Both the position numbers and the translations under genes were made by a program. From Heptranchias perlo (lineage: Eukaryota), in assembly GCF_035084215.1 (NCBI RefSeq), contig NC_090331.1:30814001-30878000 (forward strand): a stretch of DNA of 64,000 nt. The letters run 5' to 3'. Shown piece after piece: positions 37,096-40,590 of the stretch. The first letter of the stretch is position 1. Each line of letters begins with the position of its first letter. The notes below the pieces were generated by a model. It was not told where the DNA came from and made no database searches. It was given only the letters and a program-made list of their open reading frames with translations.

Positions 37096-39786
37096 CTGTT
37101 CTGTCCTGTTGAGGACATACCATTTCAAAATTGTCAGCAATTCCTTTGGAGCAACTGATTTTCAACACCGCTCAGTAAATTATTCTAGGAAGGTTAATAT
37201 TAAGTAACTTTCATTATGATATATTGACGATCCTATGAAAGAATTCTGCTCTCTACAAGAAAGAGACAGAGTACAGAGTTGGGTGTGCACATGCATGCTA
37301 GATACAGAGACAAAGTGAGGACAAAAGTGTTTGGGTATGTTTGAGACAGACCATGAGTGAACAGGACATACTTCAAACTGGACTTTTCAAAATCAGCAAT
37401 TGTCTTTTATCTCAGAATGTATAATGACCAATGTGTTAAAATGTACATTCAGCATTACTAGCTTTCATCGCTAAAGAGCAAATCAGAACGCATTCCTAGA
37501 TCATGTTTCATTGGTGTATGTTAAAGAACAAAATTCTTTTTTAACCTTTCGCATGTCAATATTCAGTAAGAGCTAAGAGTTTTAATAGAAATATTAACCA
37601 GCAATCGGGTTTATATCACATTCAGTACACGATGTGGGCCTATTTAACATTTAAAAATCACTACTTAGCACAATATTGAGATAAAAATTCTTTTAAATCT
37701 CTATACATCATAAAATTATTTCCAATAATTACAATATCATTACAGTAATTACAAATGAAAAACAAGTAAATTTACCATCAAATCATGAAAAGCCAATATG
37801 ACAAAATATCCAACACATAAGCACTATGCATGGTGGTTGATGCAAAGCATCTGTTAATATAGTTCTGCATTTCATGTTTTCATTTTTTTTTTAATTTGCA
37901 AGATTCACTTTAGAAAGCGATTTAGCCAGGTCACCAGTGTTACGTCAAATATAGTTGAGATCGCTAGCATCTCAGGAGGCCATGAAGGGACAGAATAGCT
38001 TGTAACTGTTTCTAATGATAGAACATTTTTAAAAATTATATTCATGAACTCAGCCTACTGTGCAAGCTTCAAAACCCAGGGAAAATTGGGAAACTTGAAG
38101 GAACCATTCCAAAAATCAATGAATGGTCGACATCTATAAAAGGATATTATAAAAGTTAAAATTAATTTTACTTCAACAGAAAAAGGCTCACGTGTCTTTT
38201 GAAGGGATAACTTTAGAAACCATGGGCCACTCCTGCAATCTGGGTAGTATGTACAAGTATGTGTCTGAATATTCCTTAATTTACTACACATGGCCAGAAA
38301 ACACATTGGTGGTTGTAAAACTGATCTAATTTTAAAATTACAATTTATTTCATCCAATATCCTCCAAGACATTAAAGGGAGATTTTATTCAACTGTCCAA
38401 AAGTTTTTTTTCCTGTAAATAACTGCTTAGTGCAAATGGTAGACCATGTAGCTTGCCTCCAATTTATTGCAAATTTACCTAAAGTGTTCAGCAGTACATA
38501 ATTAACAATTGTCTCTTCTTTCAAACACTGCATTTAGCTGATTAATTGCTATGAAGGACACATTTCAGTTAGAATTGAATATTCTTTTCAGCCAATAATG
38601 GTTTCTAGATTGAAGACAAATACTTTGAACTCAGTTCTTGGTTGGTGAATGGAACAAGGGCTGTAAGCCAATTTTCAGCTTGATATCAATCGGAAAATCT
38701 GATTAACTTGAAATTGGAAGACACTAAATCAAAACAGTAGGTTTTGGGCTCTATTCTCACACAATACAGCTCTATAAATAGGACAGCCAGTTATAAAATA
38801 TCACCTAAAACTGGAAAACTTTCTGAAAATATGCAACAAGATTTCAGTTCATCCACAGAAATACTATTAAAATAGTTATTTGTCACCATTTTTCCTAGGT
38901 TAAACTTTCAATGTTACCACTCTTGCTCTTTGGCAAGGAAGGACTTTTCCATAAACATAATCAATGCCATTATTGAATAAGATGAGAGTAATATGTTTTT
39001 CAAGGATGGAACTTGCTTGCAAGCTTTTACTTCCCTTGAGATGGTACCCCTGGTACCATGAAGAAATCAATTCAGAAGACTCAAGATGAAGATTAATATT
39101 TGCCCACTGAAAAGAATGAAGTTCAAAAGAAAATCTGGAATTTGAACTTAGGTCTCTTGATTGATACCTCTTAATATTAGAGTAGCTAGAACACCAAGAA
39201 TGGAAAGATATCAGGAAACTTTCCAGTTTAGATAATTAATTTGCTTCTTTCACTAACTCAGAAACCATACAATTTAATAATTGACCTATTACTAATACTG
39301 GAATAGGTTTGTACTTTGCAAGATGATCTTGATGGGCTTGGAATCCATCATTAAGCTATACCATGGCAACAAAAATGCTGCACTGAAGGTCACTGGACTA
39401 TAAAGGATGAGAACATATCAAATTATAGTCACTAATTGAAAATGTTAAGTAGCAAAAATATCAGTAAAATGTCAGTCACAAATAATTAACTCCCCAAGGC
39501 ATCAGTTGCATTGGGATACATGTAATGCAGCTATGCCTCTAAAAATGTATATCTGATAAATATCCCTGCGATTTGGGAAATTCAGATATTTTTAGAGACA
39601 TGATTGCATTGTATATGGCCCAATAACTTTTCAATTAAACACTGTGCTTCTTGCATTTTCTCTAATTTACATCCAATGAGAGGTCATCCTGTGACTCTTA
39701 TCTGTCCTTTTGTTATCTAAGCAGGGAAAGCCATTAGCACATAGTTTGGTAGTGTAGATGTATACCTTTCTACCAGAGTTGTAAGT

Positions 39787-40004
39787 CATGATGTGGAGAT
39801 GCCGGTGATGGACTGGGGTTGACAATTGTAAACAATTTTACAACACCAAGTTATAGTCCAGCAATTTTATTTTAAATTCACAAGCTTTCGGAGATTTTCT
39901 CCTTCCTCAGGCAAAACATTTGCCTGAGGAAGGAGAAAATCTCCGAAAGCTTGTGAATTTAAAATAAAATTGCTGGACTATAACTTGGTGTTGTAAAATT
40001 GTTT
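39787..40004. mobile_element. Penelope pLTR-derived palindromic insertion, 218 bp
   Basis: 87-bp perfect inverted arms 39829-39915 and 39919-40005; 12-bp TSD agagttgtaagt at 39775-39786 and 40005-40016; homologous to 50160-50249. Confidence 0.93.
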
Positions 40005-40590
40005 AGAGTTGTAAGTGGCAACATTCTCTAATACATTAATTCTATTAGTAACGGAAACTGTTGAGGGAAAAAATGTCACAACTTTCCTGAAAACAGTAAT
40101 TTCAAGTTCATGCCAAGTGAGGCGGGGGGCAATTCTGTGTTAGCCTTCCCTCTCTCCCACCCCCACAAAAGGTAAAAGTTCAAAAAAGGATCCATTTTTA
40201 CATTTAATGGTTACTTAATTCGGTATCGCTCTGATGACTAGATGTTCCACCTATTCATAGACAATGAGCAGAAAAGTTGGCCTGAATTGTATATGCATCA
40301 ATATGAAAACCATAACAACTATTTCATCTTTTAAAAATAATTCTATTAAAAAACATCAACATAATAAGGAAAATAAAAAAATCTTTTGAAAGTTTAAATA
40401 GTACAACTTTTAAAAACAAACATACATGACACAGATGATTGTATATTTTGTAAATGGAAATAAAGTTACAATATATATGAGGAAATAGCTAAATTTAACA
40501 CATAACCAAGTAGCATTTAATGACTTGAAAAATGTTTATATTAAAACAGTGCAGAATTGCAGAGTAAACACGAAGCTACAACATATTTCA

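Follow-up and report, generated by a model that had tools for sequence, protein, structure and literature searches.

The question raised by this locus is how a short palindrome with a hammerhead ribozyme motif on each strand came to lie between target-site duplications, and whether it belongs to a family of hairpins that propagates by itself or is a product made repeatedly by a larger element. In the window, which is the whole stretch of 64,000 nt that was analysed, a 218-bp insert was located at 39787-40004 between perfect 12-bp direct repeats (AGAGTTGTAAGT). Its features are as follows.

39775-39786, + strand: left target-site duplication, 12 bp, AGAGTTGTAAGT
39787-39828, - strand: tail, the last part of the element leader, present on the left arm only (alignment to the autonomous tandem junction)
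39829-39915, - strand: left arm, element leader with its sense on the - strand (identical to the autonomous element along that stretch)
39876-39916, - strand: minimal type I hammerhead motif, the copy in the host pre-mRNA (motif match)
39914-39918, + strand: junction AAACA, first right-arm bases and putative transcription start
39916-39918: loop ACA (sequence)
39918-39958, + strand: minimal type I hammerhead motif, predicted cut at 39952/39953 (motif match)
39919-40005, + strand: right arm, element leader with its sense on the + strand, without the tail (sequence and alignment)
40005-40016, + strand: right target-site duplication, 12 bp, AGAGTTGTAAGT

Each arm is 87 bp long, and the sequence of one (39829-39915) is the exact reverse complement of the other (39919-40005). 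The palindrome is not a chance occurrence, because the next longest perfect inverted repeat in the 64,000-nt window, with loops of up to 29 nt allowed, was only 16 bp. Every coordinate in an earlier note on this DNA (218-bp insert, 12-bp repeats, 87-bp arms, 3-nt loop) was reproduced, and the tail, described there as roughly 40 nt on the left arm only, was measured at 42 nt. It ends at the start codon of the element ORF (ATG at 39787-39789 on the - strand; the ORF starts with MTTIDT). The left arm stops 5 nt before the putative RNA start, and the outer end of the right arm lies a few bases before the usual internal end. The AA of the junction is common to both arms, base 40005 is counted twice (in the right arm and in the right duplication), and the AGT that closes the left duplication matches the element sequence too. 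The arms and the duplication carry no mutations; the insert is young, as had been proposed.

A 45-nt word from the arm had 9,522 exact matches in the 3.25-Gb genome, and a 38-nt word closer to the arm end had 45,932 matches genome-wide. Parent copies were found as tandem units with a period of 3,081 bp and an intact 902-aa ORF. One locus (L221:802-6591), with two identical intact 902-aa ORFs at the 3,081-bp period, is a candidate source locus. The order within the ORF is RT, Cys-rich linker, and GIY-YIG; RVT_1 was matched with an E-value of 3e-10, and GIY-YIG with an E-value of 9e-4 and 20 bits, which is below the Pfam cut-off of 22.6. The linker motif CHGNLCKTC was judged by eye in the translation. 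In the accessible text of PMC8557442 a Cys-rich linker is a trait of the Neptune/Nematis clade, and the linker and this clade description, taken by themselves, point to a parent element of that type.

Alignment with the autonomous tandem junction showed both arms to be letter-for-letter identical to the element leader, in which the order is TATAAAT, AAACATTTGC 30 nt further on, the hammerhead, an internal end near TTTACAATT, the tail, and the ATG of the ORF. The insert comprises this leader twice, with neither the TATA box nor the ORF, in agreement with its earlier description as ORF-free, and the match to the leader of a Penelope-like element with an intact 902-aa ORF bears out the Penelope origin claimed for it. 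A single ORF with RT followed by GIY-YIG in tandem with pLTRs, an inverted, 5'-truncated head-to-head copy, a tail at one end, and a target-site duplication were all found, as in Penelope-like insertions. The insert is a pair of head-to-head copies of the 5' leader of this abundant and intact retroelement; it probably arose in one insertion event and is likely a dead end.

The insertion architecture is already published (PMC8557442, PMC3846280). In the accessible text of these papers and of PMC2377424, insertions of EN+ Penelope-like elements have an inverted, 5'-truncated copy, a one-sided tail of 30-40 bp, and a duplication. The insert shares with them the head-to-head inverted pLTR, the tail at one end, the duplication, the palindromic junction, and the pLTR hammerhead; it differs in that its arms enclose no ORF and two copies of the leader make up the whole, and in that the thousands of copies available here allow junction statistics. 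A literature search found no report of leader-only palindromes of shark Penelope-like elements, of twin priming by such elements, or of junction statistics, although subscription papers and supplements may hold such reports. The copy set bears on the origin of the inverted repeats and one-sided tails of Penelope-like elements, a matter called unresolved in the accessible text of PMC8557442 and PMC11167929.

There is practically no probability that the palindrome was created during assembly from a chimeric or fold-back read. None of the read-derived contigs listed at the locus covers the full palindrome, as such an artefact would have it. Contigs from other copies of the element predominate, the right flank is partly without cover, and contigs of two other organisms do not reach the site; among the same listed contigs (67 more were unlisted) there is also no joint that skips the insert. 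However, the left junction is crossed by a separately assembled contig (39300-39808), from a sequencing run that is possibly the source of the assembly, and a perfect duplication, a one-sided tail, and thousands of similar inserts at unrelated sites argue against an artefact.

Short head-to-head hammerhead palindromes gave 4,877 matches genome-wide, in several subfamilies, and palindromes of the insert's own subfamily gave 1,132. With thousands of similar palindromes in the genome, the insert is not the one-off that had been considered. The identical 33-nt centre was present at 77 places, and all 77 copies were fetched for tail side, duplications, and variants. Duplications of 11-15 bp were found in 59 of them; the 18 others were mostly complex inserts where the boundary rule failed, and complex inserts with several jumps make up about a dozen of the 77. 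One complex palindrome occurs three times with the same flanks at a spacing of ~15.4 kb (L196-L198), a segmental duplication that inflates the counts slightly.

The 77 copies with an identical centre, their near-identical length, and the duplications in most of them would suit a non-autonomous element in the form of a hairpin, transcribed as one unit and inserted anew by proteins of the larger element, and three inserts (L005, L016, L018) stop inside one arm or just past the loop letters, like truncated copies of a hairpin RNA. However, the centre is asymmetric, and a master hairpin would fix the side of the tail. Relative to this centre, the tail was on the left in 36 copies, on the right in 37, on neither side in 4, and on both sides in 0; the 36:37 split argues that there is no master hairpin, and it largely refutes such an element. 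The same centre was also seen on three stem-II backgrounds (63, 7, and 3 copies), with both arms concordant in 73 of 73 callable copies, and it belongs to a graded series of centres: among the first 50 of the 1,132 matches, 21 had a 2-nt loop, 7 had the centre of the insert, 6 had AGATCT/GAGCTC, and 16 had others. In addition, the insert has no TATA box, and it lacks the start of the ORF, a sequence required for activity of the anole protein (PMC11167929). A self-propagating hairpin is scarcely probable at all on this evidence, and the family suggested in the earlier note was abandoned. The recurrence of an identical centre, which had been named as the mark of such a family, was indeed found, but it misleads, since the tail side is not fixed. 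The palindromes are independent products with hotspots, not a hairpin family.

A single tail was present in 73 of the 77 same-centre copies. If each arm chose its end independently, about 17 of the 77 would be expected to have two tails, and 0 were observed. Among 25 unselected head-to-head loci, 24 had one tail; the sole two-tailed insert is L174. From the arm start, the outer ends lie mostly at two distances, 87-94 and 124-132 nt, which define two sites ~38 nt apart.

These tails also bear on a single cDNA that snapped back at AAA-TGT-TT and was copied as a hairpin, or that self-primed on an antisense template as modelled in the accessible text of PMC3846280, where self-priming from junction palindromes is proposed. 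The geometry of the centre is that of a fold-back with a 3-nt loop, versions with 2- and 4-nt loops are present, and the arms are concordant at variant sites. Such an origin is nevertheless unlikely: in 36 of the 73 copies, this insert included, the supposed copy exceeds its supposed template by the length of the tail, and many junctions without fold-back geometry still keep a fixed end.

This fixed end was counted in two subfamilies. In subfamily 1, 886 copies end at AAACATTT and 219 and 218 at the neighbouring bases (13.9% versus 3.3% and 4.0%), while 5,278 of 6,382 continue past it; counted from the first T of TATAAAT, the end base is 30 nt further on. Of 90 arms sampled without selection, 12 begin exactly at AAACATTT, among them 5 of the 21 short solo arms, and 30 fetched copies with this end comprised 19 head-to-head copies and 11 that were solo or other. 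The centre of the insert recurs because copies of the element preferentially stop at this one base. The subfamily 1 peak is inflated by an A-run that merges neighbouring ends and by the self-complementary AAA-CA-TTT, and a second subfamily of different sequence was therefore tested. There, 593 copies end at ATTTCC, 161 end at the base just upstream (of the two neighbours, the one that was counted), and 1,918 continue; the end A is 29 nt after TATAAAT, as measured at a single full locus. Twenty subfamily 2 loci were hand-picked from the first rows of the match list; all 20 had true ends, with varied partners, and 7 were solo. A unit-deletion variant, considered as the source of the subfamily 2 peak, was found at 0 of the 20 loci.

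Stops at 29-30 nt after TATA in two different sequences are what run-off at a putative transcription start predicts, and the RNA 5' ends that we infer are AAACAUUU for subfamily 1 and AUUUCC for subfamily 2. Two primings whose centres are set solely by local self-complementarity or microhomology, with no role for the RNA 5' end, would fit the hotspots at AGATCT, GAGCTC, and AAA-CA-TTT and the fact that most copies pass the site. They are very unlikely to be the whole explanation, as solo copies, whose flanks are unrelated, end at the peak base too and both subfamilies, despite their different sequence, stop at this distance from the TATA box. At loci L102, L103, L107-L109, L120, L123, L129, and L143, the AAACATTT end was rejoined at the run of A in the loop of stem II, with short inner duplications. 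These duplications are a further sign of a fixed cDNA end re-annealing to A-runs.

The reading preferred here, and a probable one, is a priming of cDNA by both target strands. The GIY-YIG domain would make a staggered cut of ~12 bp in the target, and the two freed target 3' ends would prime reverse transcription at different sites, one of them at the end of the tail and the other internally. With an RNA whose start is set by the pLTR promoter, both cDNAs would run off the 5' end after only 90-130 nt. The 3' TTT of one cDNA would then anneal to, or be joined at, the AAA of the other, and fill-in would give the palindrome and the target-site duplication. In twin priming by LINE-1, both target strands likewise prime cDNA, and the two cDNAs, which copy different parts of one RNA, join by microhomology to give an inversion. 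In contrast, both cDNAs are proposed here to copy the same part, hence the palindrome. The concordance of the arms could reflect a single RNA template, a single source active at any one time, or conversion afterwards.

This double priming has a parallel in the anole Poseidon element PAc (PMC11167929): in vitro, both strands of its target were cut and extended and two RT start sites bounded the tail, both as proposed here, and ribozyme cleavage was dispensable, a further point in common. The parent element differs from PAc in its Cys-rich RT-EN linker, of the Neptune/Nematis type, and in a tail that ends at the ATG. Several points count against the run-off reading. Most copies (5,278/6,382) pass the putative start, so most templates were longer; other self-complementary words, e.g. 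AGATCT, are centre hotspots as well; the Drosophila Penelope has a TATA-less internal promoter, according to the accessible text of PMC2377424; and the start sites of the anole element, of the Poseidon clade, are inside the ORF, whereas those here precede the ATG. A more far-reaching version is a coordinated insertion, in which one dimeric Penelope enzyme on one RNA would prime both target strands, always one per start site, and the capped RNA 5' end would set the mirror axis; we regard the chances for and against it as evenly balanced. If true, coordinated insertion would account jointly for the head-to-head repeats and for the tail at one end throughout the Penelope-like group, would replace the antisense self-priming model, and would make start sites readable from genomes alone. 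Three regularities of the copies, namely a single tail in each insert, no preferred side for it, and a fixed stop 29-30 nt after TATA, translate into sharp predictions for the in vitro assay that already exists.

One minimal hammerhead motif per strand, as claimed earlier, was borne out by the motif match. On the + strand, stem I (39918-39923) is followed by CTGAGGA (39924-39930), a single unpaired A, stem II (GGAGA/TCTCC, 39932-39944), GAAA (39945-39948), GC-T-T, and the 3' side of stem I (39953-39958). Position 17 is U, which gives a weak cleavage triplet. A search of the whole window at Rfam gathering scores returned mir-128 only and no hammerhead. Around the insert, 44 matches with E-values of up to 10 were all below their gathering scores and none was a hammerhead, and Rfam hairpin models matched at the insert only under their gathering scores. 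Because Rfam gives no hammerhead match, the ribozyme call rests on the motif. The ribozyme cut was also considered as the source of copy 5' ends and was rejected: in raw counts, with denominators not counted, 166 copies start at the cut versus 131 one base upstream, which is no marked peak or excess, and 4 of 30 fetched cut-start copies were point variants.

The insert shares with the minimal hammerheads of metazoan Penelope-like elements, as described in the accessible text of PMC4209133, the core boxes, the extra unpaired base before stem II, G10.1-C11.1, the palindromic 15.2-16.2, and the lack of a loop 3. That paper also describes, for Schistosoma, hammerhead pairs with one motif on each strand at distances of 100-700 bp; in the insert, the distance is 14 nt, and in the RNA of either strand the motif pairs with its own antisense copy. 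Like the non-LTR retrozymes in the accessible text of bioRxiv 10.64898/2026.07.22.740005, the insert is short and non-coding, has a type I hammerhead, and derives from pLTRs of Penelope-like elements. However, those retrozymes are head-to-tail tandems with two or more ribozymes on the same strand, whereas the insert is head-to-head with one per strand, and it was not classed among them.

The RNA of the insert - strand was predicted to fold at -148.9 kcal/mol, versus -84.5 kcal/mol with hammerhead stems I and II forced. The duplex had been expected to compete with the ribozyme fold; by this comparison it is the predicted outright winner, and the 87-bp hairpin is expected to trap the ribozyme in the host pre-mRNA. 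Self-cleavage of the insert RNA is not expected, because the hairpin fold is favoured, there is one minimal motif per strand, and a single minimal Schistosoma motif gave no cleavage in vitro (PMC4209133, accessible text).

The host gene is on the minus strand and has R3H and SUZ exons, and the insert is intronic, between exon frames at ~40.6-40.9 kb and 34.6-34.74 kb. These findings and the presence of mir-128 agree with the placement given earlier, and we take the gene to be R3HDM1. The mir-128 precursor is at 21660-21740 of the window (- strand), in a downstream intron of the host gene. The insert is likely inert or harmless at this locus, with no effect on splicing expected, although the perfect 87-bp duplex predicted for its RNA is a possible candidate for editing by ADAR or for processing by Drosha or Dicer. 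The thousands of perfect hairpins in the genome, some of them intronic, may be a candidate source of double-stranded RNA in the animal.

Two related copies were observed elsewhere in the window. A long, decayed Penelope-like copy at 47650-50262 (+ strand) lies between 13-bp repeats (47650-47662 and 50250-50262), and its 5' junction opens with inverted upstream flank, forming a 16-bp inverted repeat (47641-47673), as if a cDNA end had switched to target DNA. At ~60045-60290 (- strand), an older repeat contains the pLTR end of another subfamily, which is solo and tail-less and has a hammerhead at 60102-60126.
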